Notes under the pieces: generated by a model
The model's database searches: none
Told to the model about the DNA's origin: nothing
Seen by the model: only the letters and a program-made list of their open reading frames with translations
Part shown: piece by piece, positions 7,752 through 49,849 of the stretch
Layout of the letters: each line of letters starts with the position of its first letter
Numbering within the stretch: position 1 is the stretch's first letter
DNA from: Terracidiphilus sp.
GTDB taxonomy: Bacteria; Acidobacteriota; Terriglobia; Terriglobales; Acidobacteriaceae
Length of the DNA: 64,000 nucleotides
Assembly: GCA_036520995.1 (NCBI GenBank)
Contig: DATDIQ010000025.1
Span: 42,149-106,148, forward strand
Reading direction: 5' to 3'
Program-made: the position numbers and the translations under genes

Positions 7752-7774
7752 GGTTCTCCCTTCAACAAGAGATA

Positions 7775-7790
7775 AGCACGGGGCATGCCA
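7775..7790 (-). promoter_or_regulatory. sigma54-type promoter upstream of flgF
   Basis: Minus strand reads TGGCATGCCCCGTGCT, with correct GG-N10-GC spacing. There are 24 nt between the -12 GC and the flgF ATG, including a GGGAGA Shine-Dalgarno. Confidence 0.55.
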
Positions 7791-7994
7791 TCCCAGCAGG
7801 CAAAGTTTGCCTACAAAAAGGGCTTTAAGGGGCTAAAAGTGGAGGAAAAATGAGGGTTGGATGAGAGCGGCATCGATGGAGCAGAACGCGCCCGCCGCAC
7901 GAAGCGCCTTCCTCATCCGAACGCAATCTGCGGGAATCTGCGGCCGCACCGTCCAATGCGTGCCCGGAGCGATCGCCGCAGCCAGCCTCCGAGA

Positions 7995-8753
7995 TTAGGC
8001 CAGCTGCAGCGAAACGGCCGAGCGCGTCTGCATGGGTCGATGATCGCCCGGCGCAGCAGTCGAAGGAGCATATTGGGCGTCTGGATGTGCCTGCTCGACA
8101 ACCGCGGACCAGCGATGCCCCGCGGCATGCGAACGAAGCTCGGAGAAATACTCGGCCACGCATGCGGGCAGCGACCAGGCCTGCGCCATCCGCAATCCCG
8201 CAACCGCCGGATCGGCCGGCACCGCGAAGCTGCGATTCCAGCCTAGAATCGCGGGCAGCGTGCCCAGTTCATGAAACAAACCCACAAGGTAGGCCTCGTC
8301 GGGATTTACCAGAAAGGACGAGGTCTCTTCGGCAAGAAATTTGCAGTTTTCCGCGATAATCCGCGCGTGCGCCCAAGTGTCGATCACTGCCGGCGGACGC
8401 GTGCTCGGCTTCAGCGGCCGGCGCGCGATTGCCTCCAGGCACGCCTGCACACCCAGCCCCGAAATGCAATCCTCAATGCGGGGGACCCGACCGTCCTCAA
8501 AAGCATCCTCGCGACCTGCCAGACGCATGATCTGCAATGTCGCGCCCAGATCGCTGAGAACCACCGTAGAGATTTCGCGCAGATCGACAGATCGCTCGCG
8601 AACCATCAACTCCACACGCAGCAGCGTCTCCGACAGCACCGGTACATCCTGAAGTTCCCGCAACGTCTCCAGCGTGCCTGCCTGCGGCCCCGCCACTCCG
8701 CTTCGCGCCGCGACGACCTCAAACACTCTCTCATTCAGCGCCATGCCACCCAC
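7995..8753 (-). CDS. HDOD-domain signalling protein
   Basis: About 250 aa. LQDVPVLSETLLRVELMV...LREISTVVLSDLGATLQIMRLAG... fits the HDOD pattern. Start is GTG at 8753 or ATG at 8744. It lies 33 nt downstream of the preceding gene. Confidence 0.7.
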   Translation of the reverse strand: MGGMALNERVFEVVAARSGVAGPQAGTLETLRELQDVPVLSETLLRVELMVRERSVDLREISTVVLSDLGATLQIMRLAGREDAFEDGRVPRIEDCISGLGVQACLEAIARRPLKPSTRPPAVIDTWAHARIIAENCKFLAEETSSFLVNPDEAYLVGLFHELGTLPAILGWNRSFAVPADPAVAGLRMAQAWSLPACVAEYFSELRSHAAGHRWSAVVEQAHPDAQYAPSTAAPGDHRPMQTRSAVSLQLA

Positions 8754-8786
8754 CCAGGTACCCTATCGGCAGGTGGCGTCAAATTT

Positions 8787-9695
8787 TCAAGGCAAAACTG
8801 TGGAAGTCTCCTCGAAAATTTCTGGCTCCTTAAACCTTCCTTCTGCAGCACTTGCGTGCACCCGGAAGAGAACGTCCACCTTCCCCCGTTTTCCCATCAT
8901 CCGCGCCCACACATGGCTCTTGCAGGGGGCAATCTGCGCCTCCCGCGCTCCGATCTCCACCGCCATCCGACCCAAAGTCCGGGCCATCCTTTCAGGCGTC
9001 TCAGGCTCCTCGACCACCACTTCCTCGTACTCCGAAGGCACCGTGATCCGGGAGATCTGCTCCTCGCGGTCGGTAGGAGTGATGAAGCACGGCTCCACGC
9101 GGAAGCCGGTCATCTGCTCGATCGCTTCCAGAAGGCTGTGCTCCACCCGCGAAACAAAGCCAAGCAAAATTCGCCTCGCTGTCGCCGAGTAGTGCAGGGG
9201 CGCCGCCGAGCTGCTCCGTAACAGCGCCCGCGGAATATCCGAAAACACTAGCTGGCTGGTGAAATCCTGCGCAAACACCGGATAGCCCCACTGCGCCGAA
9301 CGCGCCGCCGCAATCTGCTTCTCGGTTGCCATGTTCATCTCCACCAGCGTCTCCGCCAGCTCATCCTCATCCATCTCGGAACGAACCGCGCCGCGGCGCA
9401 TGTCCTCGGCCGAGAGATATCCCTTCACATGCAGCGCCAGGCGCAGCGAAAGCCGCGGAAGCCGCGGGATCTCCGGCGCTCGACGGCTCGTCATCACCGC
9501 CAGCGGTGTGCGCATGGCCAACGCGAAGCAGTCGAAGCTGCAATACCACTGCGGTCCCACCTGCATGCCTGGCCGGCTGCCCGGAATGCTGCGCATCAGC
9601 TGCGTGTTATGGCACCCGTTGAAGTCGCATACGGCGCGCATGTTCTTCCATCCACGATCGACGGCGGGCAAAAACGACAGAAGCGACAAACTCAT
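8787..9695 (-). CDS. Cys4 zinc-ribbon + T2SSE_N (GspE-N/MshEN-fold) domain protein without an ATPase domain
   Basis: 302 aa, ATG at 9695 checked. N-terminal C-x4-C-x25-C-x3-C (YCSFDC, TRASH/FCS-like). The central region aligns by eye to PilB/GspE N-terminal domains (LAETLVEMNMATEKQIAAARSAQWGYPVF...RRILLGFVSRVEHSLLEAIEQMTGFRVEPCFITPTD). No Walker motifs. Confidence 0.6.
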   Translation of the reverse strand: MSLSLLSFLPAVDRGWKNMRAVCDFNGCHNTQLMRSIPGSRPGMQVGPQWYCSFDCFALAMRTPLAVMTSRRAPEIPRLPRLSLRLALHVKGYLSAEDMRRGAVRSEMDEDELAETLVEMNMATEKQIAAARSAQWGYPVFAQDFTSQLVFSDIPRALLRSSSAAPLHYSATARRILLGFVSRVEHSLLEAIEQMTGFRVEPCFITPTDREEQISRITVPSEYEEVVVEEPETPERMARTLGRMAVEIGAREAQIAPCKSHVWARMMGKRGKVDVLFRVHASAAEGRFKEPEIFEETSTVLP

Positions 9696-9722
9696 AGAAT
9701 GACCTCAGTTCTTTCCGTTCAA

Positions 9723-10520
9723 TCAGTTCAGGAGGTGCGATGCCACCGGCTGCGGAATATCCGTCACCCGCAGGCCGTAGTTTCCGTCCACCACCACCGC
9801 TTCGCCGCGCGCGATCAGCTTGCCGTCGAGGTACAGCTCCACCGGCTCATCGACCATGCGATCCAGCTCGATCACCGAGCCGCTGCCCAGTTCCAGCACT
9901 TCGCGCAGCGGCATCTGCCGTTGTCCAAAGCGCAGCGAGACATTCAGCTCGACGTCCATCACCAGCTTCAGGTTGTTCGCTGAAACCATGTTCTCCTGCG
10001 TCTTGTGCTTCGGTTCGCCGTTGCCTTCGTCTGGGAGCGCATCGAATAGCTCGCCGCCAAAGTAAAGCAGAGCCTGCACGTTCGCCTCGTCGCCAGGACC
10101 TGCGAGCGGCACCACAAACATGCCGCCAAAGGCCAGCCCGGCCACGCGATCGACCTTGAACTCCAGCTTGCCGTACTTTTCTTCAAGAGCCGCAGCCAAG
10201 TCGGTTGTGGCCGTCGCGACAACTTTAGCCAGCGCGTCAATGTGCTCATCGGCGAGCTCCGTCACCGGCTGCTTTACGATCCTTGCCACCAGATCCGTCA
10301 CCTGCGGCTCATAGAACTCCACGTAGCATTCGCCGGCAATGGATCCTGTAACCGTCAAGCGAAAATGAATCGGCGTGCCTTTATTCGACGCGGGATCGGG
10401 GCCGTCCATTGCCTCCAGAGGCCAGGGAGATCCAGTGGCTGTAGCCATCGCTTGAGCCAGCGCAGCCGCAAATGCTGCTGCGAAATGATGGGGTCCATTC
10501 TTCTTCTCTGGGGTATTCAT
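9723..10520 (-). CDS. fliY: flagellar motor switch protein, FliY-like (extended N-terminus + FliN/SpoA domain)
   Basis: 265 aa. The C-terminal 80 aa are a clear FliN/SpoA domain (LNVSLRFGQRQMPLREVLELGSGSVIELDRMVDEPVELYLDGKLIARGEAVVVDGNYGLRVTDI). The N-terminal 170 aa may be CheC-like. Confidence 0.8.
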   Translation of the reverse strand: MNTPEKKNGPHHFAAAFAAALAQAMATATGSPWPLEAMDGPDPASNKGTPIHFRLTVTGSIAGECYVEFYEPQVTDLVARIVKQPVTELADEHIDALAKVVATATTDLAAALEEKYGKLEFKVDRVAGLAFGGMFVVPLAGPGDEANVQALLYFGGELFDALPDEGNGEPKHKTQENMVSANNLKLVMDVELNVSLRFGQRQMPLREVLELGSGSVIELDRMVDEPVELYLDGKLIARGEAVVVDGNYGLRVTDIPQPVASHLLN

Positions 10521-10526: not shown

Positions 10527-11483
10527 CTATCTCCTCTTCCAATCTGTCGACGAGACGCGGCGGCCGAGTTGCGCCGCACGCTGGGTTCCGTTGCGCACCG
10601 GGACGGCTTCGAACATCGAGCGTCCTCCTGCGGAAAGCATGCCGGGGTTGCGAATCGGCGCGCGCAGCTTGAGCACCGAACCGGGCCGCAGCGCAATCAA
10701 GTCCCGCACCGCAACGCGCAGGCCGGGCAGCTCCGACGACACCATGAAGTCGCAATCCAGAATGCGTTCGCGCAGCGGAGCCATGGGGAAGCTCCATACG
10801 CGCGTCTTCTTCTGCGGCTGATCGCTCTTGATCTGCGTCATCAGTCCATTCAAAAACTCCGCCGAAAACACCAGCTTGAATGCGCCCGAAATGCCGGCTA
10901 CTTCGATCACGAACTTCAGCACCGTCACCTTTTCGTTGGGCGTGAAACACTGGTGCATAAGGGCGGGCTTCAACCGCGACCCGGGAATCAGCGATAGCCC
11001 CGGTACGCGCCATACCGACTCTGCCTGGCGCACCAGCACCGTCATCACGCTCTGCATCACTTCTTCTTCGATCTCCGAAAGCTCGCGCGCTTCGCCAGTC
11101 TCCACACTCGTGCTGCCCATCAGCAGCTCGATGATCGGAAACACTAGATCCAGATCGAACTCCACTACCAGCGTGTTCGACGAAAAAGGCAGGATGTAGC
11201 TCATCGTCGGAATGCTGGCGATGTGCTCGCGAATGGGCAGCTGGTCGAGACTGTCGAGCTTTACTTCGAGCCCCGTCCCAACGTAAGTGTCGAGAGCGCC
11301 GGCCAGTTGCAGGGCAAACGTCTCGTGGATCGCCGTCAGCGCGCGCGCATCTTCATTCGACATGCGCCCCGCCGACCGGAAGTTGCAGGAGTGCACGGTG
11401 CGCTGCTTGACGACGGCCTTCGCCGCCGTATTGCTCTTCGCTGCCGCGGCGTCTGGATGATTCGTGCTAGGCGTGTTGCTCAA
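10527..11483 (-). CDS. fliM: flagellar motor switch protein FliM
   Basis: 318 aa with the FliM middle domain and a C-terminal SpoA-like domain. TTG start at 11483, and no in-frame extension is possible. Confidence 0.9.
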   Translation of the reverse strand: MSNTPSTNHPDAAAAKSNTAAKAVVKQRTVHSCNFRSAGRMSNEDARALTAIHETFALQLAGALDTYVGTGLEVKLDSLDQLPIREHIASIPTMSYILPFSSNTLVVEFDLDLVFPIIELLMGSTSVETGEARELSEIEEEVMQSVMTVLVRQAESVWRVPGLSLIPGSRLKPALMHQCFTPNEKVTVLKFVIEVAGISGAFKLVFSAEFLNGLMTQIKSDQPQKKTRVWSFPMAPLRERILDCDFMVSSELPGLRVAVRDLIALRPGSVLKLRAPIRNPGMLSAGGRSMFEAVPVRNGTQRAAQLGRRVSSTDWKRR

Positions 11484-12267
11484 GTTGTCCTCCCGCGGCC
11501 CGCATCGTGGAGGCCGAGTTCCGCTGCAGATGTTCGAGCGAGGCCTTCAGCTTGACCATGATTTCCTGGCGGATCTGTGAAACCCGCGACAGCGCCACGC
11601 CCACTACCTTGGCGATTTCCTTCATGGTGAGCTCCTCGCGATAGTAGAGCGACAGAATCAGCTGCTCGCGCTGCGACAGCTTGGCGACGGCCTCGGCAAG
11701 GTGCGCCTTCATTTCGCCTTCCAGGCACAGTTCGAAGGGATTCAGCTCGTCGAGATCGGGAGCCGATTCGATCACATCCAGCGAATCTCCTTGATCGTTC
11801 GCGACTGCGACCTTCTGCCCCGTGATTTGCAACGAATCGAGTTGGGCAATCAGTTTCCGCAGATGCTCCGGCTCGATCTGCATCTCCTGCGCAATCTCTG
11901 CTTCTGACGGATGGCGTCCCAGCTTGCCTTCGAGGCGCGCCGTCACTTCTGCGATCTCGCGGCCTCGGCGCCGCATGTAGCGCGAGCCCCAGTCAGTCTC
12001 CCGCAGGCTGTCGAGAATCGCCCCGCGAATGCGGAACTTCGCGAAGGTCTTGAACTGCACGTTCTTCGACCCGTCAAAGCTGCGCGTCGCTTCCAACAGA
12101 CCCACAACGCCCGCGCTCACCAGGTCCTCCATCTCCACGTGCTGCGGCAAACGCTCGCGGATGCGCGCGGCAATGTAGTAGACCTGCGGCAGCTCCTGCA
12201 TCACCAGGTCGTCCCCGTCAGCCGCGTTCGTTGCGCTCGTCTTGTAGGCCAGTTCCGCTGCGGTCAT
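11467..12267 (-). CDS. fliA: flagellar sigma factor FliA (sigma28)
   Basis: 266 aa with sigma70 regions 2, 3 and 4 (DLVSAGVVGLLEA; RELTMKEIAKVVGVALSRVSQI). ATG at 12267 checked, with an AAGGAGGTG Shine-Dalgarno. Confidence 0.9.
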   Translation of the reverse strand: MTAAELAYKTSATNAADGDDLVMQELPQVYYIAARIRERLPQHVEMEDLVSAGVVGLLEATRSFDGSKNVQFKTFAKFRIRGAILDSLRETDWGSRYMRRRGREIAEVTARLEGKLGRHPSEAEIAQEMQIEPEHLRKLIAQLDSLQITGQKVAVANDQGDSLDVIESAPDLDELNPFELCLEGEMKAHLAEAVAKLSQREQLILSLYYREELTMKEIAKVVGVALSRVSQIRQEIMVKLKASLEHLQRNSASTMRAAGGQLEQHA

Positions 12268-17443: not shown

Positions 17444-17937
17444 TCAGCCGACTCCGCCATCTCCGCAAGAGTTTCGACATCGTCTACGGACTCCGTTTCG
17501 TCGTCGAGTGTCGTCAGCAACGACACGCCTTGCGTTCCACCGCCGATCAGGTATTTGCGTCCTTCGGCCTGCAGAATCGCGACAAAACGTTTCTCGCCCA
17601 GCTGCACTGTCTCGATCACCTGTAGCTGTTTCGGCGTCGCGTTGCCCACGCCCAGGAAGCCAAACATGCGGCCAAAGAGCGAAGGCTGCGGTGCTTCCGG
17701 CTCCGGCAGCCTGGGCCGTGGAACCCGGCGCGTCACCTGCTGGTGGCGTAGCGATTCGATCTTCCGCGGCTGGCCGTAGTTCGCCAGCGCAGAGGGCGCC
17801 ACCGTCGGTCCAAAGGCAGTGGGCACCACCGTCGGCAGGGTCGCCGCGGAGGCATATGCCCGCGCTTCGCGGGTGATCGGTTTCCGGGGAGCCCGGTGCT
17901 GAGAAGTTGGTCTGTCGACTGAGATTTTCAGATTCAT
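17440..17937 (-). CDS. fliO: FliO-like protein
   Basis: 165 aa immediately upstream of fliP. The C-terminal segment VIETVQLGEKRFVAILQAEGRKYLIGGGTQGVSLL resembles the FliO soluble domain. I see no convincing N-terminal TM helix. Confidence 0.5.
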   Translation of the reverse strand: MNLKISVDRPTSQHRAPRKPITREARAYASAATLPTVVPTAFGPTVAPSALANYGQPRKIESLRHQQVTRRVPRPRLPEPEAPQPSLFGRMFGFLGVGNATPKQLQVIETVQLGEKRFVAILQAEGRKYLIGGGTQGVSLLTTLDDETESVDDVETLAEMAESAE

Positions 17938-18236
17938 ATTTGCTCCGTGATGCGAACGGCGAGGTGGTCTTCAATCACTTCGAATTCGGTCCAGCCGATC
18001 AGCAGTTGGTTAACGCGCAAGGGCACGTCGCTGGTGTGATGGCATGCGGTTTCCACGATCGACCCTTCCTTCAGCGCCAGAAGGTCGGCAATCGTAAAGT
18101 GAACCACTGGCACTTCGAGCGTGAGGGTGCAGGGTAGCCACGGCATGCTGTCGAGCGGATCTTTCTGGCTCGGCACGGCGTGGGGAACGGCCGTCTTTCC
18201 GGCGTTGGGATCAAGGTTGGGCGCTGCAGAATTCAT
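17934..18236 (-). CDS. fliN: flagellar motor switch protein FliN (short, SpoA domain only)
   Basis: 100 aa. LTLEVPVVHFTIADLLALKEGSIVET...LRVNQLLIGWTEFEVIEDHLAVRI matches the FliN/SpoA family. ATGA overlap with fliO. Confidence 0.8.
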   Translation of the reverse strand: MNSAAPNLDPNAGKTAVPHAVPSQKDPLDSMPWLPCTLTLEVPVVHFTIADLLALKEGSIVETACHHTSDVPLRVNQLLIGWTEFEVIEDHLAVRITEQI

Positions 18237-28697: not shown

Positions 28698-29045
28698 TTA
28701 ATCCTTAATGGCGGTGAGCAGCCGGTGGAACTCGGCTTTAACCAGCTGCACGCCCATTTGATATTGCAATTGCGTTTCGGAAAGCAGCATGCTTTCGCGA
28801 TCGATGTTGACGTCGTTGCCATCGGGGCGCTCGGGCAGGCCTTCGACTTCGACGGAGGCCGGCTGAAGCTGCTGGCCGGTGGTCTCGTCGTTCATGGCCT
28901 GCTGCATGGCGGACTGAAAGTTGATGTCGCGCGCGTGGAAGCCAGGCGTATCGACGTTGGCGATGTTCGATGCCACCACCTGCTGGCGATCGGACGTGAC
29001 CTGCAGGTAGCCCTGCAGCAGTTGCATGATGGGAGTGGTTGCCAT
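28698..29045 (-). CDS. flgB: rod protein FlgB
   Basis: 115 aa with the SNIANVDTPGFHARD motif. The ATG overlaps the stop of the upstream response-regulator gene (TGATG). Confidence 0.9.
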   Translation of the reverse strand: MATTPIMQLLQGYLQVTSDRQQVVASNIANVDTPGFHARDINFQSAMQQAMNDETTGQQLQPASVEVEGLPERPDGNDVNIDRESMLLSETQLQYQMGVQLVKAEFHRLLTAIKD

Positions 29046-30427
29046 CAGGCGTACCTCCTTGGGGGCAGACCGTATTCGCGAATCTTGTTGCGCAGAGTGC
29101 GCAGGCTGATGCCGAGCATCTCGGCGGCCACGGTCCGGTTGCCGTCGGTGAGTGCGAGCGTTTTTTCTAAGTGCAGTCTTTCCACCTGCCGAATTGGCGT
29201 TCCGGGGGGCGCAACAGATGGACTGGACGCCGGAACGGAGACCTGCACCGGACGCGCGAGGCTGGTGTTGCCCTGGAATTCCGTCTCGAAGGATCGCGCA
29301 TCGAGGTCGGAGGTGTTGCTGAGGGCGAGCACGCGGCGCATGAAGTTGGCGAGTTCGCGTACGTTGCCGGGCCAGGAGTGCGACTGCAGACGTTCGAGGA
29401 AATCGGAATGCAGACGGGGCGGAAACGTGCGATGCTGCGCGGCGAATTTCTCGGCGAAGAAGTGGGCGAGGACCGGAATGTCTTCGCGGCGTTCGCGGAG
29501 GGGCGGCAGGGTGAGCGGAATGACGTTGAGGCGATAGTAGAGATCGGCGCGGAACTGGCCGCGCTCGACCATGGCGCCAAGGGCTACGTTGGTGGTGGCG
29601 ACGACGCGAATGTCGACGTGTACCGTCGTGCCTTCGCCGAGGCGCTCGAATTCACGCTCCTGCAGCACGCGCAGAAGCTTGGGCTGCAGGTTGAGGGGCA
29701 TTTCTCCGATTTCGTCGAGCAGGATGGTTCCACCGTCGGCTAGTTCGAATTTGCCGGGACGATTTGCGACGGCTCCGGTGAAAGCGCCTTTGCCGTGCCC
29801 GAAGAGTTCGCTCTCGAGCAGGGTTTCGGGAACCGCGGCGCAGTTGACGGCGATGAAGGGCTTGCCGCTGCGATCGCTGGCGTCGTGGACGAAACGTGCG
29901 AGAAGTTCTTTGCCGGTGCCGCTCTCGGCTTCGATGAGGACGTCGGCGCCGGTGCTGGCCGCGGCTCGCGCGCGCTGCAGGGTGCGCAACAGGGCCGGCG
30001 CGTGGCCGACGATGTCGCCGTTGGCGTTGGTGTCTTCAGCGGGCTGCTGCCTGGCGCGGTGGATGACCTGGGCCGCGGTAGCCTGCAGGCGATCGAAGGG
30101 AATGGGCTTGGTGAGGTAGTCGAGCGCACCGTCGCGCATGGCGTTGACTGCGTCGGGGACGGAGCCGTAGGCGGTGAGAAGAATGACGGCGGTTTCAGGC
30201 GATGCTTTGCGCGCAGCGCGCATCACTTCCATGCCGGAGCCGTCGGGCATGCGCATGTCGGTGACGACCAGATCGAAGTCGCGGCCTTCCACGTTGCGGA
30301 TGGCTTCGCGCACGCAGGAGGCGGTTTCGACGCGCCAGCCGTGGCGCAGAAAATTGGCGCGCAGCGCGGTGCGAATGCCCGGTTCGTCGTCGACCACCAT
30401 TACGGAAAGCACTTCACCACTGGTCAT
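29045..30427 (-). CDS. sigma54-dependent response regulator (NtrC family; FlrC/FleR-like by context)
   Basis: 460 aa. Canonical receiver (VVDDEP...DLVVTDMRMPDGSG...), AAA+ domain with GAFTGA and ESGTGKE, and a C-terminal Fis-type HTH (RTVAAEMLGISLRTLRNKIREYG). Confidence 0.9.
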   Translation of the reverse strand: MTSGEVLSVMVVDDEPGIRTALRANFLRHGWRVETASCVREAIRNVEGRDFDLVVTDMRMPDGSGMEVMRAARKASPETAVILLTAYGSVPDAVNAMRDGALDYLTKPIPFDRLQATAAQVIHRARQQPAEDTNANGDIVGHAPALLRTLQRARAAASTGADVLIEAESGTGKELLARFVHDASDRSGKPFIAVNCAAVPETLLESELFGHGKGAFTGAVANRPGKFELADGGTILLDEIGEMPLNLQPKLLRVLQEREFERLGEGTTVHVDIRVVATTNVALGAMVERGQFRADLYYRLNVIPLTLPPLRERREDIPVLAHFFAEKFAAQHRTFPPRLHSDFLERLQSHSWPGNVRELANFMRRVLALSNTSDLDARSFETEFQGNTSLARPVQVSVPASSPSVAPPGTPIRQVERLHLEKTLALTDGNRTVAAEMLGISLRTLRNKIREYGLPPRRYA

Positions 30428-31683
30428 AGGGCAGGAAACTCCAACTGAAACGTACTTCCTTCGTGGACGCGGCTGGTGACGCGAATGGCGCCGTTGTGCT
30501 GGGTCATGAGACGTTTGCAGACGGCGAGGCCGAGGCCCGGAGTTTCGCCGGTGGCACTGAAGCCAGCGTCGAAGACGTGCTCGAGGACGTTCTCGGGAAT
30601 GCCGCAGCCGGAGTCGCGAATCTCGATCTGGGCCATCTCTTTGCCGTCGCGGGGGACGCGCGCGGTGGATACGTGGACACGGCCGCCGGCTTCAGTGTGG
30701 CGGATGGCGTTGCACACGATGTTGAGGACGATCTGGCGAAGGGCGTCTTCGTTGCCCAGGATGGAGGGCGTGTTGTCTGCGGCGGAAAAGGCAAGTTCGA
30801 GACCCGCCTGCTCGGCGATGGGCTGCACGAACTCGACACCGCTCTGCACGCACGCGGCGAGATGGACGGGGACGAGCCGGGGCTTGGATTCGCCGTTGAG
30901 GCTCAGAACATTGTTGACCGTTCCGGAAAGGGTGCGAATGCCGGCGCGCAGATGAGAAATCCATTGCGAACCCTGGCCGAGATCCTGTTCGATGAGCCCG
31001 GCAAATAATTCCAGGCTGGCTAATGGATTTCTAATTTCGTGGGCAAGGATGGTGGAGATTTCTGCGAGCGCGGTGGCGCGGCGTGCGGCTTCGCGTTCCT
31101 GCTCTGCCTGTTTGTTGGCCGTGATATCGCGGAGGATCCAGATGCTTTCAAGGTTCGCGGCAGCGTCAGACGGGCCCTGGATGGATGTACTGGAAAAGAG
31201 CTTGCGATTGCCGATGGCGAGCCAGCGTTTTTCTTTGCCGGATTGCACGCAGACTTCGCTCTCGAGCTGATCGTGCGATCCGCGGGCCAGGGCCTCAAAG
31301 TCGACGCGACTGCTGCGCGAAAGCTCGCGCAGGCTTTGGATCCTGGCATCGCCGAGATCGAGGAGCCGGCGTCCTTCAGGGTTGATCATAACGATGCGCT
31401 CGGCCTGGTTGAGGACGAGCACGCCGCAGGGCATGGAATCGAGGATCTGCTGCAGGGCCGCGCGCATGCGGTCGTTTTCAGCAAGGCTGCGGGTGAGAGC
31501 GGCATTGCGCTTGGAGAGTTCGGAACCGAGACGCCCAACTTCCTGCTGCAGATCGCGGTAGGACTGCTCGAGCACCGCCGAGGCCGAGATGAATTCGGAA
31601 AATGCATCCGCGAGAAGCTGAGGGCTCGGGAGAGAGTCGGCGCCCAACTTCTTTATTGGAATGGCATGAGAACTCGGCAGCAT
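30424..31683 (-). CDS. cytoplasmic PAS sensor histidine kinase (FlrB/FleS-like by context)
   Basis: PAS region, H-box ILAHEIRNPLASL and an HATPase_c domain (DSGCGIP...GLGLAVCKRLM). ATG at 31683 checked. The ORF-track TTG at 31698 lies inside the putative sigma54 promoter. Confidence 0.85.
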   Translation of the reverse strand: MLPSSHAIPIKKLGADSLPSPQLLADAFSEFISASAVLEQSYRDLQQEVGRLGSELSKRNAALTRSLAENDRMRAALQQILDSMPCGVLVLNQAERIVMINPEGRRLLDLGDARIQSLRELSRSSRVDFEALARGSHDQLESEVCVQSGKEKRWLAIGNRKLFSSTSIQGPSDAAANLESIWILRDITANKQAEQEREAARRATALAEISTILAHEIRNPLASLELFAGLIEQDLGQGSQWISHLRAGIRTLSGTVNNVLSLNGESKPRLVPVHLAACVQSGVEFVQPIAEQAGLELAFSAADNTPSILGNEDALRQIVLNIVCNAIRHTEAGGRVHVSTARVPRDGKEMAQIEIRDSGCGIPENVLEHVFDAGFSATGETPGLGLAVCKRLMTQHNGAIRVTSRVHEGSTFQLEFPAL

Positions 31684-31697
31684 TTGCCTATCTACCA

Positions 31698-31713
31698 AGC
31701 ACGACGTATGCCA
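31698..31713 (-). promoter_or_regulatory. sigma54-type promoter-like element upstream of the PAS kinase gene
   Basis: Minus strand reads TGGCATACGTCGTGCT, the same -24/-12 elements as the flgF element. Only 15 nt separate the -12 GC from the ATG, so the transcript would be nearly leaderless. This lowers confidence. Confidence 0.4.
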
Positions 31714-31747
31714 AACCGGGACAGGGCACCCAAATTGGGATTACGGC

Positions 31748-32926
31748 TTACAGAATGATGTGTTCGGGCCTGATCTCGGTCTCGGTGCCCACGAGGATCG
31801 TGGCGCGTTCGATGGCGTTGCGCAGCTCGCGGACGTTGCCGGGCCACGAATGCTGTGCCAGTACATGGAGGGCATCACGAGAGAGCGAGACGCCGTTATG
31901 GAATCTAGCCACGAAGGCGATGGCGAGTTCCTCGATATCGCTCATGCGATCGCGCAGGGGCGGAAGCTTGATGGGGAAAACATTAAGCCTGTAGAAGAGG
32001 TCTTCGCGAAACTGGCCCTGGTCGATGCGCTTCTTGAGATCCGCGTTGGTGGCCGCGATGACGCGCACATCGACTTTGAGATTTTCATTACCGCCGATGC
32101 GCTGGACCTCGCCCTGTTCGAGGAAGCGCAGGATTTTGCTTTGCAGGGAGAGAGGCATGTCGCCGATTTCATCGAGGAAGAGGGTGCCGCCGTGGGCGGC
32201 GTGAATGCGGCCGATGCGGGACTGGACAGCGCCGGTGAAGGAGCCCTTGGTATAGCCGAAGAGCTCGGCCTCGAGGAGGGTTTCGGGGATGGCGGAGCAG
32301 TTGACGACGATGAAGGGCTGATTGCGGCGGGGGCTGATGAGATGAATTTCCTGTGCGATGAGGTCTTTGCCGGTTCCGCTTTCGCCGGTGACGAGCACGG
32401 TGGTATCGCGGGAGGCGACCATGCGGGTGAGCGCATAGGTGCGCACCATCGGGGCGGAGTCACCGATCATGCTGCGCAGGCGCACTTTGTTATCGGCCGG
32501 AACGCGCGGGTTTTCGGGGCCGGTAAAGGGAATGGGCGCGGTGCGAAGGGCGCCGGTTTGATTGACGACGTCGGCAAGCTTGCGGGAAACGGGTGTGGGC
32601 GAGGCGCTGCCGACCAGAAGCTGGCCGGTATGCGCATTGAGCATCATGATCTGCGTATGGGGGAAGCGGTCGCGGACGATGGCATGAAATTCGCCTGGCT
32701 CGAGGTCCGGCAAGGATGGGTCGAGAAGGAGGACAGTATCCTCGGTGGCGTGCGCGTGGAGAAGCTTCAACGCTTCGGCGCCGCCGCTGGCCTGGAGCAA
32801 GTTCCAGCGGGGAAGGGTCAACTTGCTTTGAAGCTCTTCACGGAGCCTCGCATTGGGACTGACCACGAAGACATCGATGGGAATTCGATCTTCGAATCGT
32901 CCGATTTGTGCAGCCGGTGCGGCCAT
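31748..32926 (-). CDS. sigma54-dependent activator with an atypical receiver and no DNA-binding domain
   Basis: AAA+ core (GESGTGKD, GSFTGA, WPGNVRELRNAIERA). The protein ends 18 aa after the ERA motif with no HTH. The N-terminal REC-like domain lacks the acidic pair (VVSPN). ATG at 32926 checked, with GGAGG upstream. The ORF-track GTG is at 32944. Confidence 0.85.
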   Translation of the reverse strand: MAAPAAQIGRFEDRIPIDVFVVSPNARLREELQSKLTLPRWNLLQASGGAEALKLLHAHATEDTVLLLDPSLPDLEPGEFHAIVRDRFPHTQIMMLNAHTGQLLVGSASPTPVSRKLADVVNQTGALRTAPIPFTGPENPRVPADNKVRLRSMIGDSAPMVRTYALTRMVASRDTTVLVTGESGTGKDLIAQEIHLISPRRNQPFIVVNCSAIPETLLEAELFGYTKGSFTGAVQSRIGRIHAAHGGTLFLDEIGDMPLSLQSKILRFLEQGEVQRIGGNENLKVDVRVIAATNADLKKRIDQGQFREDLFYRLNVFPIKLPPLRDRMSDIEELAIAFVARFHNGVSLSRDALHVLAQHSWPGNVRELRNAIERATILVGTETEIRPEHIIL

Positions 32927-32985
32927 TTGAGAAAGCGCCTCCACGAAAAATAAAACAGCAAGAAAAACCCTGATACAGCGAGTGG

Positions 32986-33741
32986 TCAGCTCGCTTCTTG
33001 CAACGGGGAACCAGAGTGTTCGGACGGCGGAAACGGAAGACCGAACTCGGCCCTGCGCTGGTCCTGGGACCGAACAGGCAACCTGAGTACGATCCGCAAA
33101 GGATCTTCGGAGAGCTCCATCGTGCCTTGCTGGCTCCGAAGGGAGGCTTCCATGAGGGAAAGGCCGAGGCGCTGCTGAGAACCAAACCGCTTCCCGGGAG
33201 CGCTTTCGGCAAGAAGAACCAAATCGACGACAGGGGGGTGGACGTCGACAGTGAACTTAAGAACGCTTCCCGGCTCAGCAAGGGAGGCCAGGGTTTTGAC
33301 TGCGGAGCGCAAGGCGCGTTCAGTCCGGTCGGCATCGCAGAGCAGATCGAGGGCCGCGGCGGGCAAGGCAGCTTCGATGCGCAGGCCGAGCGCGGAGAAA
33401 GTCTTCTCCAATTCGAGTACGGGCTCGATCACTTCGGCGAGTGACACCGGCTTGCAATCGGCGGGGTGCGAAGCGGCATCGAGAAGGCCCTGGAGACAGA
33501 ACATCATGTCGCAGAGGCGTTCGATCTCGCGCGTGGACATCTCAAGATAGCGTTCGTGCTCGGGCGCGACGGCGTTGACCATGGCCAAGGCGCCGAGCGC
33601 GCCGCGCAGAATGGTGAGAGGCTGTGCCATGGCGTGGAGACCGTTGGCCAGGTCTGCATAAAGCGCAGCCGGCCGAAGAGCGGTCGCGGGTGTCTCGTTG
33701 GGTTTGTCGTCAGGCAACGCGCAACTCATAACCAAAACCAC
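32986..33741 (-). CDS. sensor-less histidine-kinase-like protein (DHp H-box + degenerate ATPase domain)
   Basis: About 250 aa with no TM or sensor domain. H-box-like LANGLHAMAQPLTILRG. The C-terminus keeps a G2-like RLGLSLMEA, but I cannot find N-box Asn or G1 DxGxG motifs. Confidence 0.55.
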   Translation of the reverse strand: MVLVMSCALPDDKPNETPATALRPAALYADLANGLHAMAQPLTILRGALGALAMVNAVAPEHERYLEMSTREIERLCDMMFCLQGLLDAASHPADCKPVSLAEVIEPVLELEKTFSALGLRIEAALPAAALDLLCDADRTERALRSAVKTLASLAEPGSVLKFTVDVHPPVVDLVLLAESAPGKRFGSQQRLGLSLMEASLRSQQGTMELSEDPLRIVLRLPVRSQDQRRAEFGLPFPPSEHSGSPLQEAS

Positions 33742-34564: not shown

Positions 34565-34836
34565 TCATCGCACTGGGATGAAACGGTTTACAGCTGCAAC
34601 GTTTGAATGAGTAGTATAGGGTGGATTGCAACAATCTTGGTGAGATTTCAATGAGATTAGAGTTACCTTGGAGATTCAGGAATAACGGGGTAGCGGGATT
34701 GCGGGAAGGGCGGGATTGGGGTAGAGTAGTGCCCTCCCGATTTGGAACAGATGAGAGAGCGGTTCTCCCGTTTGCGTCCCAAGGGGCTGAACGGGCAAGA
34801 AATAGGGGTTGGATTCCCGGAGTTTTCGTCGAAAAT

Positions 34837-34844
34837 GCCGATAA
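34837..34844 (+). promoter_or_regulatory. possible sigma28 -10 box upstream of the PilZ gene
   Basis: Perfect GCCGATAA 63 nt upstream of the ATG at 34907. The -35 region (CGGA/GGAG) is poor. Confidence 0.35.
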
Positions 34845-34906
34845 GTAAATCATCGAAGGGCGCCGCAAAGGGCGAGAGCGGCACTCCGGCAAGGACGGAC
34901 GGAAGC

Positions 34907-35242
34907 ATGCGGAAATTCAACTATCGTGTTCCACGTTTCGCGGTCGATATTCCGATCCGTTTGACGTTTGACGAGACGTCGCAGGTAGGGCGCTGCAAGG
35001 AGATCAGCACGGAGGGAATGCGTCTGGAAGTGCGCGATCCTCTGGCTCCGGACACGGCGGGCACGGTGCACATCAGCTACCAGGGAGTGGCATTAGAGTT
35101 GACGGTGCGGGTGGCGCATTCCAGTTCGTCGCACGAAGGCGTGCGGTTTGTGTACGAGACGGATGAGCAGAGGGATGAAGTGATCCGTCTTGTGGCTTTG
35201 CTTTCCGGCCGCGTGCATCAAGGGCCGGTGCTGCTGCAGTAG
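34907..35242 (+). CDS. single-domain PilZ protein (partly degenerate c-di-GMP motifs)
   Basis: PilZ-like pattern YRVPRFAVDIPIRL ... GRCKEISTEGMRL ... GVRFVY. ATG at 34907 checked, with AAGGA upstream. The ORF track extends to 34742, but that extension would overlap the putative -10 box. Confidence 0.65.
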   Translation: MRKFNYRVPRFAVDIPIRLTFDETSQVGRCKEISTEGMRLEVRDPLAPDTAGTVHISYQGVALELTVRVAHSSSSHEGVRFVYETDEQRDEVIRLVALLSGRVHQGPVLLQ

Positions 35243-35459: not shown

Positions 35460-36245
35460 CTAGTTGGCGGCCTTGGTAGTGGCGACGCTGTTGACCGAGA
35501 GGCCGGGATTGACCTCGGATCCAGCCTTGACCTGGTATTGCACGATGAGGGAGATGCGTCGGTTGGAGGGATCCTGGGGATTGCCCGGCACGCGGAGGCG
35601 CTGATCGGCAAAGCCGCGCACTTGCGAGACCTGGCCGGGATGCAGGCCTTCGTTTTGCATCAGGCGCCGGGCTTCGTTGGCGCGATCGGTCGAGAGGTCC
35701 CAGTTGTCATAGGCACGTTTGCCGGAATAGGGTTTCGAGTCGGTGTGTCCCTCGATGGAGACATCGTTGGGCAGCTTGCCGATATTCTGCGCGAGCACTT
35801 TGAGGAGCTCGATGAGGGCGGGTGTCGGCTTGTCGCTTCCGAGCTCAAAGAACGTGCCTTTGGCGGACTCCATCAGCTCGATGCGCAGGCCTTCCGGGGT
35901 GACAGTGATTTCAATCTGGTTCTTCAGCTTGTCGAAGGGATCGAGGTGGTGAATCGACTGAAGAATCTCGTCTTTGAGCTTCTTCATGTCTTCTTTCTTG
36001 AGGGCGATGAATTCGCCGGCGCCGTTCTTATTGGTGCCGACCACTTTGGCGGTGCCGCGCGGATCTTTGAAGTAGCCGCCGACGGCCTCCTGCACCTGCT
36101 TGCTGGCATTCATCATCCAGAGCACGATGAAGAGAGCCATCATCGCGGTAACGAAATCGGCATAGGCCACTTTCCACGCGCCGCCGTGATGGCCGCCATG
36201 GGCTGCCTTCTTTTTTATGATGATGATGTCGCCGGTCTCTGCCAC
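35460..36245 (-). CDS. motB: flagellar stator protein MotB (OmpA-like C-terminus)
   Basis: 261 aa. TM plug region WKVAYADFVTAMMALFIVLW with the conserved Asp. OmpA/PG-binding domain (IEGHTDSKPY...NWDLSTDRANEARRLM). Confidence 0.9.
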   Translation of the reverse strand: MAETGDIIIIKKKAAHGGHHGGAWKVAYADFVTAMMALFIVLWMMNASKQVQEAVGGYFKDPRGTAKVVGTNKNGAGEFIALKKEDMKKLKDEILQSIHHLDPFDKLKNQIEITVTPEGLRIELMESAKGTFFELGSDKPTPALIELLKVLAQNIGKLPNDVSIEGHTDSKPYSGKRAYDNWDLSTDRANEARRLMQNEGLHPGQVSQVRGFADQRLRVPGNPQDPSNRRISLIVQYQVKAGSEVNPGLSVNSVATTKAAN

Positions 36246-36269
36246 GTCGGATGTCCTTCTGGAACCTGG

Positions 36270-37154
36270 TTAAGCTGCCACTGCCGGAGCCGCGGCGGCA
36301 TCGTCCTTCTGCCGGCAGGCTTTTTCAACTTCCTGGAAACTGGGGCGCACATGCTCGGGAATGGCGCGACGCGCCATCTCGATGGCCAGCGAGGGTGACA
36401 TTCCCTTGATGAAGGCGAGCATGATGACGCGGAGGACGTGATAGTAGGAGTGCTCGTCGCCGATGATCTTGGAGAGATTGGACCCCAGGGGGCCGACCAC
36501 GCCATAGCAGAGGAGAATGCCGAGGAAAGTTCCGACGAGGGCGGCTGCGACCTTGTGGCCGATTTCTTCGGGGGGTCCGCCGAGAGCGCTCATGGTGACG
36601 ACCACGCCGAGCACGGCGGCCACGATGCCGAGGCCTGGCAAAGAGTCGGCCATGGTGCTCAAAGCCGAAACTGTTTGCGATTCGCCGGAGTGATGGACTT
36701 CCATGTCCTGGTCCATCATCTGGTCGAGGTCGAAGGGTGTGGCGCCGCCGGTGATGGCCATGCGCAGGGTGTCGCAGACAAAGTCGCGCGCGTGATGATT
36801 GCCGATGAAGTCAGGGAACTTGGTGAAGACGGTGCTTTTCTCCGGCTCTTCGATGTCGGACTCGATACCGGCCAGGCCTTCTTTGCGGGCCTTGTTGAAG
36901 AGGGTGAACATCATCTTCAACGTGTCGATGTAGCGCTGGCGCGAATACTTCGATCCTTTGAGAATCGAAGCGAGGCTGCCGACGGTCTTTTTCAAGACGT
37001 GGACGGGGTTGCCCGACAACAGAGTGCCGATCGCGGCGCCGCCGATAATCAAGAACTCGGACGGCTGCATGAGGACCATGATGGGCCCCTTTTCCATGAG
37101 AAAGCCGCCCAGGACTGCTCCGAACACCACTACGATCCCAATAATTGCAAACAT
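36270..37154 (-). CDS. motA: flagellar stator protein MotA
   Basis: 294 aa, MotA/TolQ/ExbB family, with E. coli MotA-like length and architecture. ATG at 37154 checked. Confidence 0.92.
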   Translation of the reverse strand: MFAIIGIVVVFGAVLGGFLMEKGPIMVLMQPSEFLIIGGAAIGTLLSGNPVHVLKKTVGSLASILKGSKYSRQRYIDTLKMMFTLFNKARKEGLAGIESDIEEPEKSTVFTKFPDFIGNHHARDFVCDTLRMAITGGATPFDLDQMMDQDMEVHHSGESQTVSALSTMADSLPGLGIVAAVLGVVVTMSALGGPPEEIGHKVAAALVGTFLGILLCYGVVGPLGSNLSKIIGDEHSYYHVLRVIMLAFIKGMSPSLAIEMARRAIPEHVRPSFQEVEKACRQKDDAAAAPAVAA

Positions 37155-37358: not shown

Positions 37359-39278
37359 TTAATGAATGAGCGGGGACGCGAGGTGGCTGAAGCCGCTGCG
37401 CAGGTGCTCATCAATCTGGTCGACGGCGACCGGCTTGCTGAAATAGAAGCCCTGGATGGTATAGCACTGCTGGGCCTCGAGGAACGAAAGCTGGGCTCGG
37501 TTTTCGACGCCTTCTGCCAGGACGGCGAGGTTCAATGCTTTTGCCATGTTGATGATGGCAGTGGTGATGGCGGCGTCGTCGGTGTCGATGGAGACGTCTT
37601 GAATAAAGGTGCGCGCGATCTTGAGGCGGTTGACCTTGAACTGGCGCAGGTAGGCAAGGCTGGAATAGCCGGTGCCGAAGTCGTCGATGGCCAGCATGAC
37701 GCCCATGTCTTTCAATTCCTGCAAAATCCCGAACATGACGTCGGCGTTGGAGAGCAGCAGGCTCTCAGTCAATTCGAGCTCGAGGTACTTGGGATCGAGG
37801 CCGGTTTCACTGAGGACATCGCGAATGAGATCGCCAAAGCCCTGCTGGCGGAACTGGACGGCGGAAACATTGACGGCGATGGGGACGGGGGGCAGCCCCT
37901 CATCCTGCCACTTGCGCGCCTGGGCGCAGGCGGTGCGCAGTACCCATTCGCCGATGGGGACGATGAGCCCGCTGCATTCGGCCACATCAATAAACTTGCC
38001 TGGCGGAATAATGCCGGATTGGGGATGGTTCCAGCGCAGAAGCGCTTCGAGTCCGGTCACTTCGCCGGAACGGGCGTCGACCTGCGGCTGATAGACGAGG
38101 AAAAGCTCATTGCGCGCCAGCGCCATCTGGAGCCCGTGCTCGATGCGCAGGCTCTCCTGGACCTTGTCGTTCATGGCATCGGTGAAGATGCGGAAGCGGT
38201 TGAGACCATCTTCGCGGGCGCAGTTCATGGCGATGTCGGCGGCCTTGATCAGCGATTCGGAATCGCGCCCGTCTTTGGGGTAGAGGCTGATGCCCAGGGT
38301 GCAGAAGACATTGAGGGAGTGGCCGAAGAACGAGTACTCGGCAGCGAGCTGGTTCACGATCTTTTCGGCAACGGAGATGACGCCGTTGAGATCTTTGGCG
38401 TCCTGCAGGACGATGGCGAATTCGGCGCCGCCGATGCGGGCGACGAGGCGGTTGCCGCCGGCTGCCTGGACGATACGCTCGGAAATTTCCTGCAGAAGGC
38501 GGTCGCCGAAACGCTCCCCGAGTGAATCATTGATGACCTTGAAGCGGTCGAGCTGGAGCAGCAAGAGCGCCGCCTCGCTGTTCTTGCGTTCAGCGGTAAC
38601 CAGGGCCTTGGCGAGCTGATCGTGGAAGAGCGTGCGGTTGGGGAGGCCGGTGAGCCGGTCGTAATAGGCGAGCCGTTCGGTGCGCACCTCGACCTGCTTG
38701 CGCTCGGTGATGTCTTCGCCGGTTCCGTCGTAGCGGACAATGCGGCCTTGTTCACGGACTTCGCGCACGTTGAAGCGCACCCATTTTGCAGCGCCGTCGC
38801 GATTCGCGACCTGGAGATCGAGACGCCGAACCTTCCCTTCGCGCGTGGATGAAGTGATTTTGGACCATTGGCGCGGAGGGAAGAAGCGTGCCGCGCCGGC
38901 GGATTTGTCGGCCAGGAATTCATCGGGCGAGGCGTAGCCCAGGATGCGCGCCATTTCGCTGTTGAGGCTGAGAGGCGTGCCTTCGGGGGCTATCTGAAAG
39001 ATGCCAACGGGCGAGTCTTCAAAGATGCTTCGATACTTGGTCTCGTCCGCGACCAACTGCTTGTTTGCGTTTTCATAGCCTTGAAGGAGACGTTGAAGCG
39101 ATTCGAGGGCTTCGGGCCACGACCGCGCGATGGGATGATTCCGTCTGCGCTCCACAAAAGGGCGAGCCACGGCTTCCGCAGCGGGAGCCCCGTTCTCTTC
39201 GAGGAGAGCAGGGATCTCGGGAGGGGCCTCGATACCTTGGGCACGAGAAGGCGTACCTGGGCGGCGACGGGGTTGCAT
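37359..39278 (-). CDS. PAS-GGDEF-EAL protein; GGDEF degenerate (GGAEF), EAL intact; predicted c-di-GMP phosphodiesterase
   Basis: 639 aa with a PAS domain (YRSIFEDSPVGIFQ). The GGDEF domain has RIGGAEFAI and no RxxD I-site. The EAL domain has EALLRW, NVS, ELTES, DDFGTGYSS and EGVE. ATG at 39278 checked. Confidence 0.9.
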   Translation of the reverse strand: MQPRRRPGTPSRAQGIEAPPEIPALLEENGAPAAEAVARPFVERRRNHPIARSWPEALESLQRLLQGYENANKQLVADETKYRSIFEDSPVGIFQIAPEGTPLSLNSEMARILGYASPDEFLADKSAGAARFFPPRQWSKITSSTREGKVRRLDLQVANRDGAAKWVRFNVREVREQGRIVRYDGTGEDITERKQVEVRTERLAYYDRLTGLPNRTLFHDQLAKALVTAERKNSEAALLLLQLDRFKVINDSLGERFGDRLLQEISERIVQAAGGNRLVARIGGAEFAIVLQDAKDLNGVISVAEKIVNQLAAEYSFFGHSLNVFCTLGISLYPKDGRDSESLIKAADIAMNCAREDGLNRFRIFTDAMNDKVQESLRIEHGLQMALARNELFLVYQPQVDARSGEVTGLEALLRWNHPQSGIIPPGKFIDVAECSGLIVPIGEWVLRTACAQARKWQDEGLPPVPIAVNVSAVQFRQQGFGDLIRDVLSETGLDPKYLELELTESLLLSNADVMFGILQELKDMGVMLAIDDFGTGYSSLAYLRQFKVNRLKIARTFIQDVSIDTDDAAITTAIINMAKALNLAVLAEGVENRAQLSFLEAQQCYTIQGFYFSKPVAVDQIDEHLRSGFSHLASPLIH

Positions 39279-48067: not shown

Positions 48068-48076
48068 GGGCGTGGA

Positions 48077-49832: not shown

Positions 49833-49849
49833 GCTGTGCGACACCCCTT

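Follow-up and report, generated by a model that had tools for sequence, protein, structure and literature searches.

The 64,000-nucleotide (nt) stretch of Terracidiphilus sp. DNA examined here (hereafter the window; contig DATDIQ010000025.1 of assembly GCA_036520995.1, positions 42,149 to 106,148 of the forward strand) carries two genes directly behind flagellar switch genes, and raises the question of what such a pair contributes to a flagellum. Gene 1 encodes a protein of 302 amino acids (aa) that is most likely a soluble three-module adaptor, in which a four-cysteine zinc ribbon is followed by a complete MshEN (GSPII) domain, of the type that heads the ATPases of type IV pili and type II secretion, and by a small C-terminal domain of a novel kind, while gene 2 encodes a stand-alone HDOD protein. 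In the class Terriglobia, the two genes accompany the flagellar operon as a conserved accessory pair. The explanation that we consider best, at a probability of roughly 0.4, is that the gene 1 product (hereafter the Zn-MshEN protein) derives from a c-di-GMP (cyclic diguanylate) sensor and serves here as a ligand-independent adaptor that works with the HDOD protein on the flagellar motor or switch.

The gene pair lies at the 3′ end of a flagellar operon

Gene 1 (8787..9695; ATG start) and gene 2 (7995..8753; 252 aa from the GTG at 8753, with an alternative in-frame ATG at 8744) are both located on the minus strand, where they follow fliA (sigma-28; 11467..12267, with Sigma70 regions r2, r3 and r4), fliM (10527..11483; Pfam FliM and FliMN_C) and a gene encoding a 265-aa FliN-family protein (9723..10520), all in the same orientation. 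Because the N-terminus of gene 1 is conserved among its close homologues, in which P10 is invariant, the ATG at 9695 was taken as its start. The name fliY, given to the 265-aa gene in the initial annotation of this locus, could not be verified, as its product showed the C-terminal domain of FliN only (FliMN_C, residues 186-255) and no CheC-like domain in Pfam at E<=1.

Inspection of the open reading frames (ORFs) and spacers bore out the annotated gaps to the nucleotide: 27 nt separate the FliN-family gene from gene 1 (9696..9722, minus strand, with a GAGG 9 nt ahead of the gene 1 ATG) and 33 nt separate gene 1 from the HDOD gene (8754..8786, minus strand). Both spacers are too short to hold an entire promoter, and the terminator scan found no terminator-like site in the 33-nt one. 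Between positions 6900 and 12400, scanning for sigma-70 promoters and terminators revealed nothing exceeding shuffled expectation; a "terminator-like" match at 7789-7775 was rejected, since it corresponded to the sigma-54 promoter of flgF. This sigma-54-type promoter, TGGCATGCCCCGTGCTT (7774..7790, minus strand), is situated within the 243-nt region preceding flgF, 23 nt ahead of the flgF start, and marks the 3′ end of the operon that holds the gene pair. In 51 of 69 related loci the strict pattern TGGCAC-N5-GTGCA recurred some 24 nt ahead of flgF, and most of the others carried a near-match. Given the short spacers and the presence of a conserved sigma-54 promoter only before flgF, the gene pair appears to close a flhB-flhA-fliA-fliM-fliN transcription unit, and the conservation of that element suggests that the rod and ring genes of this group are RpoN-dependent. 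Co-transcription with the switch genes, which had been proposed from the gaps, is thus very likely in view of the short gaps, the conserved gene order and the position of the sigma-54 promoter.

The source genome is metagenome-assembled, and the DNA of the window also occurs in soil metagenomes. Moreover, a 246-nt contig from a soil metatranscriptome was 100% identical to positions 9472-9717, spanning the start of gene 1 and 22 of the 27 spacer bases, and two further metatranscriptome pieces matched at 95-99% identity. The 246-nt contig is consistent with expression of gene 1 and with read-through from fliN, without amounting to proof of co-transcription.

Gene 1 encodes an MshEN domain flanked by a zinc ribbon and a novel domain

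The structure of the Zn-MshEN protein was modelled with AlphaFold2 (AF2) on 31 homologues, with a predicted local distance difference test (pLDDT) score of 80 and a predicted template modelling (pTM) score of 0.75. Residues 20-70 (9486..9638, minus strand) comprise a four-cysteine zinc ribbon and a helix, with cysteines C23, C28, C52 and C56 and the signature WYCSxxCF. While the initial annotation had correctly recognised these four cysteines, the middle interval that it counted as 25 residues is in fact 23, giving C-x4-C-x23-C-x3-C. All four are invariant in 31 close homologues and are retained in 112-114 of the 114 representatives of 50%-identity clusters. In the AF2 model, short strands lead into a helix at 54-70, with C23 and C28 on the first knuckle and the other two cysteines at the helix start, an arrangement that we read as treble-clef-like. 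Classification as a TRASH/zf-FCS finger, suggested earlier, found no support from hidden Markov models (HMMs): searches with the isolated N-termini of three family members assigned no Pfam family at E<=10, TRASH/zf-FCS included, and yielded only zf-MYND-like matches (0.06-0.14) in one of the three. Zinc-finger matches of the family profile in the PDB were likewise non-significant (0.14-0.48), and the likeness to C-x2-C-x19-22-C-x3-C with F/Y-C-S is therefore one of pattern only.

The central part consists of a helical MshEN_N subdomain bearing two 24-residue motifs (residues 81-136; 9288..9455, minus strand), as delimited by the AF2 helices at 84-136 and by alignments to PilF, PilB and MshE, followed by an alpha/beta MshEN_C subdomain (residues 137-215; 9051..9287, minus strand; alpha/beta at 156-215 in the AF2 model). 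A fifth cysteine, C203 (about 9087-9089), lies outside the ribbon in the MshEN_C strand EPCFIT and is invariant in both close and distant alignments.

Because Pfam assigned no family to the 302-aa protein at E<=1, identification of the MshEN domain was based on NCBIfam, the PDB, fold comparison and the family profile, each of which agreed with the earlier alignment by eye to the N-terminal domains of GspE, PilB and MshE. The NCBIfam model of the PilB N-terminus aligned to residues 87-230 (E=4.7e-5), and a phmmer search of the PDB retrieved the GSPII-A domain of Thermus PilF (E=1e-5). Using the AF2 model as a query, Foldseek returned 9G1W, 7LKO, 8PDK, 5HTL and 2D28 in alignments of about 140 columns (E=1e-7 to 2e-4), corresponding to PilF GSPII-A/B, PilB-N in its PilZ complex, MshE (5HTL) and XpsE-N; the highest target-normalised TM-score among these matches was that of MshE 5HTL (0.74). 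A profile of distant members gave still stronger PDB matches to PilF (1e-37), PilB (4e-18) and MshE (1e-14). The Pfam family PF05157, which had been put forward as a check, was not detected in the window protein but matched the MshEN_C region of 18 of the 30 distant relatives. Membership of gene 1 in the MshEN/GSPII domain family is secure by sequence and fold.

As annotated, gene 1 has no ATPase domain: neither Pfam nor NCBIfam matched a T2SSE ATPase (PF00437, with its Walker A motif), and the protein ends at residue 302. Pfam found no PilZ domain in either gene 1 or gene 2. The remaining 90 residues had been described as an unassigned tail, and no family is indeed assigned to them; most of this tail, however, is a predicted folded beta-alpha-beta3 domain (residues about 220-280; 8856..9038, minus strand; AF2 223-278), followed by some 22 residues (281-302; 8790..8855, minus strand) that are predicted to be disordered on the basis of pLDDT values below 50 and variable alignment columns. 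Modelled separately with AF2, the C-terminal domain reached a pLDDT of 85.6. Pfam had no match for it, and Foldseek against the PDB gave generic sub-structure matches only (MTAN and MCEE; best E=0.012, TMq, the query-normalised TM-score, below 0.5). The domain is kept family-wide, with profile coverage extending to about residue 280.

Gene 1 thus shares with the MshEN domains of MshE, PilB and PilF (PF05157; 5HTL, 8PDK) the four-helix MshEN_N, the alpha/beta MshEN_C and the tandem motifs with their 5-residue spacer. Unlike these proteins, it has no ATPase, is flanked by the ribbon and the novel C-terminal domain, resides in a flagellar operon and carries two degenerate motifs. MshEN domains occur fused to many partners (PMC5013675), and the Escherichia coli glycosyltransferase NfrB is reported to carry a C-terminal MshEN domain that acts as a c-di-GMP sensor outside the secretion ATPases (PMC8669469); NfrB differs from gene 1 in its partner domain and in its pathway, which is exopolysaccharide synthesis.

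Gene 2 encodes a stand-alone HDOD protein

Profile searches confirmed the annotation of gene 2 as an HDOD protein, with residues 38-167 matching the Pfam HDOD family (PF08668) at 36.5 bits (gathering score 22.9; E 4.5e-9). Its PDB matches were 3HC1 (4.4e-7, the best), 3M1T, 3MEM and 3I7A, all of them HDOD proteins. The blocks conserved across 61 orthologues include a W-x-H block (H129), a GL-x-H block (H161) and an AH late in the sequence. The position of the HD-pair aspartate after H161 is occupied by glutamate in gene 2 and is not conserved in these orthologues, which makes a full di-metal site doubtful; in comparison with the di-iron site of 3HC1, only H129 and H161 are conserved among the HD-type ligands.

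In size (roughly 250 aa) and in being a stand-alone or adaptor-type HDOD protein, gene 2 resembles the Geobacter protein 3HC1, PSPTO_4229 and SadB. PSPTO_4229 of P. syringae (273 aa) is a motility regulator whose deletion or over-expression alters swimming (PMC11813219), and SadB of Pseudomonas is an HDOD adaptor without ligand binding that acts in the Lon-dependent proteolysis of AmrZ (PMC12075610). What has not been reported for these three is a pairing with an MshEN gene in a flagellar operon, as seen for gene 2.

The pair is conserved in flagellar operons of Terriglobia

Gene 1 has 256 homologues of about 300 aa, and an exhaustive profile search retrieved 565 cluster representatives at E<1e-10, 187 of them below 1e-30; most are of full length (275-300 aa). 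Scanning species-representative genomes yielded 71 loci, numbered here with the prefix L, one of which (L071) was an unrelated partial match. The order flhA-fliA-fliM-fliN-ZnMshEN-HDOD-flgF-flgG was found in 70 of the 71, and the nine distant members examined (about 30% identity) were all placed likewise, each with an HDOD or HDOD-like gene immediately downstream of it, so that by operon position the pair belongs to the flagellar regulon. The synteny expected by the initial annotation is hence near-universal in relatives, and both of the domains that it had named, T2SSE_N and HDOD, were recovered by the searches. Named records came from Terracidiphilus, Silvibacterium bohemicum, Granulicella, Acidobacteriaceae, Candidatus Acidiferrales and Acidobacteriia; record labels pointing to Verrucomicrobiae and Aquilonibacter were discounted, as the FlhA proteins concerned were 82-93% identical to that of an Acidiferrales locus. 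As far as the evidence goes, the family occurs only in the class Terriglobia of the Acidobacteriota and always lies in flagellar clusters.

The HDOD gene was present in 68 of the 70 loci, in divergent form in L069 and L070, whereas its presence could not be checked in L066 at a contig end. The two loci without it, L022 (8909-9181) and L024 (8933-9234), both from Acidobacteriaceae, keep the Zn-MshEN gene and leave about 270-300 nt to flgF, the HDOD gene having been lost. In L070, the Zn-MshEN gene (7905-8872) is split into the overlapping frames 7905-8489 and 8357-8872; this locus derives from a long-read metagenome-assembled genome, and the split reflects either a frameshift or an assembly error.

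Could gene 1 be no more than the functionless remnant of a decayed pilus or secretion ATPase gene? In favour of this, its sole recognisable domain is that of an ATPase N-terminus and its binding motifs are degenerate. The length of about 300 aa and the three modules nevertheless persist in hundreds of clusters with identities as low as about 25-30%, with invariant cysteines, N- and C-terminal domains of the protein's own and a fixed operon position. There is also no ATPase remnant downstream, because the HDOD gene begins 33 nt on, and the gene is matched by the metatranscriptome contig. We have rejected this explanation, which the conservation pattern effectively refutes.

At all loci, the constant upstream neighbour of the block was fliA. 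In L072 and L079 the pair comes directly after fliA, with a 4-nt overlap and with neither fliM nor a long fliN in between. This layout shows that the constant context of the pair is the flagellar operon between fliA and flgF and not the switch genes, so that the coupling to C-ring genes proposed in the initial annotation holds as a link to the flagellar operon and is weaker as a specific link to the C-ring. Three Acidiferrales-like loci (L080-L082) carry a shortened HDOD gene product of about 200 aa with Pfam E-values of 2.8e-5, 0.096 and 1.4e-4, respectively, of which only that of L080 exceeds Pfam's HDOD gathering score. In all three, cheX is inserted between the HDOD-like gene and flgF (L080 8588-9082), preceded by cheY in two (L081 8615-9489; L082 8648-9522), and a cheY-like receiver gene occupies the corresponding position in L070 (9747-10175). 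The presence of cheX and cheY behind the pair ties the block to switch signalling.

The closeness to fliA also leaves some room, albeit modest, for a role of the pair in flagellar gene expression instead of the motor. The adaptor would then be the HDOD protein, with the Zn-MshEN protein as its sensor or anchor, and the two would jointly control how active or how stable FliA or another checkpoint factor is. In L072 and L079 it is gene 1 that overlaps the fliA stop by 4 nt, four-cysteine ribbons are frequent in regulators, and the HDOD proteolysis adaptor SadB affects flagellar regulation (PMC12075610). Against this stand the presence of an anti-sigma factor gene, flgM, in the same cluster and the lack of any DNA-binding or protease-related domain in the pair; moreover, fliM and fliN intervene in most lineages and cheY/cheX follow in some, which fits better with action at the level of the switch.

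The c-di-GMP motifs are near-canonical in about half of the family and eroded in the window copy

Canonical MshEN domains contain two copies of the motif RLGxx(L/V/I)(L/V/I)xxG(L/V/I)(L/V/I)xxxxLxxxLxxQ, separated by 5 residues, for which the relaxed form [RKPN]hGxxhhxx[GAS]hhxxxxhxxxhxx[QNKRYWST] has been used in searches (Wang et al. 2016, PMC5013675). The register of the two copies in the Zn-MshEN protein was set by HMMER alignment to PilF GSPII-A, and each was scored out of 11 against the relaxed motif. Motif I, SLRLALHVKGYLSAEDMRRGAVRS (S83-S106; 9378..9449, minus strand), scored 8/11, with serine at position 1, arginine in place of Gly3 and histidine at position 7. Motif II, ELAETLVEMNMATEKQIAAARSAQ (E112-Q135; 9291..9362, minus strand), scored 7/11, with Arg1 replaced by glutamate, Gly3 by alanine, Gly10 by asparagine and Leu21 by arginine. 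Although the 5-residue spacing is retained, the window protein does not match the motif of a c-di-GMP receptor, Gly3 being gone from both copies. The degeneracy itself had been noted by the initial annotation, which placed motif II correctly; its motif I was two residues out of register, the copy starting at S83 with R85 at the Gly3 position.

Among 114 family representatives, the consensus of motif I was PLGLLLLSRG[LVI][LI]TxEQLRxALxxQ, followed after 5 residues by the motif II consensus R[IL]GExLxxLG[FY][VA]TExQVTAALAxQ. Gly3 was present in motif I of 100/114 and in motif II of 97/114, and 55 of the 114 scored at least 10/11 in both relaxed motifs. From these motifs, it is plausible that the Zn-MshEN family was ancestrally a c-di-GMP receptor. 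Within the Acidobacteriaceae, motif I Gly3 is kept in 56 of 59 copies, that of the window being the sole Gly-to-Arg case, while motif II Gly3 is kept in none (Glu in 40, Ala in 13, Asp in 5, Gln in 1); position 1 of motif II is acidic in 39/59, and Leu21 is replaced by arginine in 58/59.

Loss of Gly3 has known consequences in related domains, as the guanine is read by the Gly3 backbone amides (PMC11731258). In VcMshEN, the substitutions G11L and G40I, at the two Gly3 positions, abolished c-di-GMP binding and stabilisation, and XpsE has lost binding via G11V, R38G, G40L and L58C, among other changes (PMC5013675). PilF GSPII-A, in which motif I is good and motif II degenerate, did not bind c-di-GMP in isothermal titration calorimetry (PMC11731258). 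Judging by its motifs, the Acidobacteriaceae branch resembles this non-binding GSPII-A, and the window copy, the most eroded that we have seen, is predicted to be devoid of canonical c-di-GMP binding. The ligand, left open by the initial annotation, can thus be framed more sharply: near-canonical motifs in the family ancestrally, and a window copy without both Gly3 residues.

A nucleotide might still be bound at a non-canonical site, be it c-di-GMP or another such as cyclic GMP-AMP (cGAMP), pGpG or (p)ppGpp, and possibly together with the HDOD pocket. The inter-motif spacing and Gln24 of motif II are strictly retained, as is an invariant arginine (R81 in the window) two residues ahead of motif I; HDOD pockets can hold metals (3HC1); and MshEN reportedly also binds cGAMP (PMC5013675). 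We nonetheless consider such binding unlikely, since both guanine-reading Gly3 positions are lost, acidic residues occupy positions 1 and 3 of motif II in most of the clade, and the HDOD partner shows no conservation of the HD aspartate. The Acidobacteriaceae protein is strongly conserved despite its lost binding residues, which argues instead for a ligand-independent role.

The pair may act on the cytoplasmic face of the flagellum

The closest sequence and fold matches of gene 1 are PilF GSPII-A (9G1W), XpsE-N (2D27/2D28) and PilB-N in the PilB-PilZ-FimX complex (7LKO), which share with it the eroded key residues, including Gly3. The degenerate MshEN domains of PilF GSPII-A, XpsE and PilB dock proteins rather than sense nucleotides (PMC5013675, PMC11731258). 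These domains remain within ATPases, and the candidate partner of gene 1 is an HDOD protein and not PilZ or FimX.

We propose a mechanism in which the MshEN module would read c-di-GMP via its tandem 24-residue motifs, both in the ancestor and in many present lineages, and the Zn-MshEN and HDOD proteins would relay this signal to the flagellum at its cytoplasmic face, either the C-ring/switch or the export gate, resulting in a tuning of rotation, switching or assembly. Motif II would then have eroded in the Acidobacteriaceae, and both half-sites in the Terracidiphilus copy, which would make the latter a ligand-independent protein-protein adaptor comparable to the N-domains of Xanthomonas PilB, XpsE and Thermus PilF GSPII-A. 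A target at the switch or motor is favoured, because the block is very likely co-transcribed with fliM/fliN in most lineages and with cheY/cheX in one, and because small c-di-GMP effectors that act on the motor have a precedent in YcgR and MotI. The likeness to YcgR, MotI/DgrA and FlgZ, which are small soluble c-di-GMP receptors, some of them encoded in flagellar clusters and acting on the motor, is an analogy of function only: their fold is unrelated, gene 1 having no PilZ domain, and the window carries a separate PilZ gene beside motB.

The pair might also be a factor for flagellar assembly or placement. In other bacteria, the number and position of flagella are set by FlhF together with FlhG, and the membrane-platform proteins of pilus and secretion systems are binding partners of the MshEN_C/N1E-like half. 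If, during assembly, this half docked on the export gate (FlhA/FlhB) or on the membrane/supramembrane (MS) ring or C-ring, the Zn-MshEN protein could set flagellar number or position. Such a role would suit the membership of the pair in the flhB-flhA-fliA transcription unit and the lack of any flhF or flhG between flhA and fliA at every locus seen, as well as the nature of GspE/PilB N-domains as docking modules (2BH1, 4PHT and 7LKO are among the fold matches). We regard it as improbable: the absence of flhF and flhG from the cluster shows no need for a substitute, whole genomes having lain outside the search, and the pair has no GTPase or ATPase activity to drive placement.

Several observations weigh against the sensor-derived adaptor that we prefer. 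L022 and L024 keep gene 1 without an HDOD gene, and the partnership is hence not obligatory; likewise, adjacency to the C-ring genes is not constant, as L072 and L079 illustrate. The loss of binding is predicted from the motifs only, some deviations from which are tolerated, such as the proline at position 1 of PilF GSPII-C, which retains c-di-GMP binding (PMC11731258), and a non-canonical ligand or binding mode is conceivable. Finally, gene neighbourhood is the sole functional link between gene 1 and FliM, FliN, FliG, FlhA, FliA or the HDOD protein.

Other features of the window

The complete flagellar regulon occupies positions 94-29045 on the minus strand. Beside fliA, fliM, the 265-aa FliN-family gene and the gene pair, it contains flgB, flgC, fliE, fliF, fliG, fliH, fliI, fliJ, fliK, flgD and flgE; a small FliN-type gene (100 aa; 17934-18236, minus strand) that precedes fliO, fliP, fliQ, fliR, flhB and flhA; and flgF, flgG, flgA, flgH, flgI, flgJ, flgM, flgN, flgK and flgL. 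The 265-aa FliN-type protein has a 185-residue N-terminal part without a Pfam family, and the versions of distant relatives measure 300-324 aa.

Adjacent to the regulon, a flagellar sigma-54 regulatory set on the minus strand (29045-32944) comprises an FlrC-like REC-AAA-HTH_8 activator (29045-30427), a histidine kinase with a PAS domain (30424-31698) and another sigma-54 activator (398 aa; 31748-32944), which is without a Pfam REC or HTH match and could be FleQ-like. Between these regulators and an OmpR-type response regulator lies a 251-aa ORF (32986-33741, minus strand), which, like a 407-aa ORF at 51360-52583 (plus strand), shows a gene-like codon position bias and no Pfam family.

Further along, a 166-aa PilZ protein with a near-canonical EISTEG motif and an atypical RxxxR region is encoded on the plus strand (34742-35242), divergent from motB and motA (35460-37154, minus strand); motA is in turn adjoined by a gene for a PAS-GGDEF-EAL protein (37359-39278, minus strand). 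A second motA/motB pair is found at 39595-41186 (plus strand). The PilZ and PAS-GGDEF-EAL proteins near motAB possibly provide a separate c-di-GMP route to the stator and, more speculatively, may have taken over direct c-di-GMP input to the motor from the Zn-MshEN protein.

Outside the motility region, a cluster at 46880-54941 resembles aromatic catabolism, with genes for an FAD monooxygenase, a 3-carboxymuconate cycloisomerase-type lyase, a protocatechuate 3,4-dioxygenase beta subunit, a CoA transferase and an IclR regulator.

Implications for flagellar c-di-GMP signalling in Terriglobia

Literature searches, together with one supplementary file of the 2016 MshEN paper, revealed no published description of an ATPase-less protein with this order of zinc ribbon, MshEN and C-terminal domain, nor a report of a fixed place in a flagellar operon or an obligate HDOD neighbour for such a protein, in agreement with the initial annotation, which knew of no such flagellar component. 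The MshEN domain itself is already known; what had not been characterised before is a class-wide module of the flagellar operon, with a canonical-looking ancestral receptor and a window copy without the key binding residues. It is a tentative proposition, and one that we hold to be rather less probable than its opposite, that the Zn-MshEN and HDOD proteins constitute a new class of flagellar effectors and the first MshEN-type, non-PilZ c-di-GMP receptor on the switch or export apparatus, of which the Acidobacteriaceae version has turned ligand-independent.

Known control of flagella by c-di-GMP runs via PilZ proteins (YcgR, MotI and FlgZ), FleQ and FliI. If our proposal is correct, the class-wide occurrence of an MshEN-type receptor in the flagellar operon would represent an extra c-di-GMP route to the flagellum, and the first case of a flagellum making use of a domain that is familiar from pilus and secretion ATPases. 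The HDOD domain is widespread in signalling, with a function that is still largely obscure; its strict genetic pairing here with a defined sensor in a defined machine offers a concrete handle for its study and would, if the proposal holds, provide an HDOD protein with a defined partner and output. Acidobacteria are abundant soil bacteria and, to our knowledge, their flagellar motility is almost unstudied. Within this group, the coexistence of orthologues with canonical and with eroded motifs would amount to a natural experiment on how a second-messenger receptor becomes ligand-independent.

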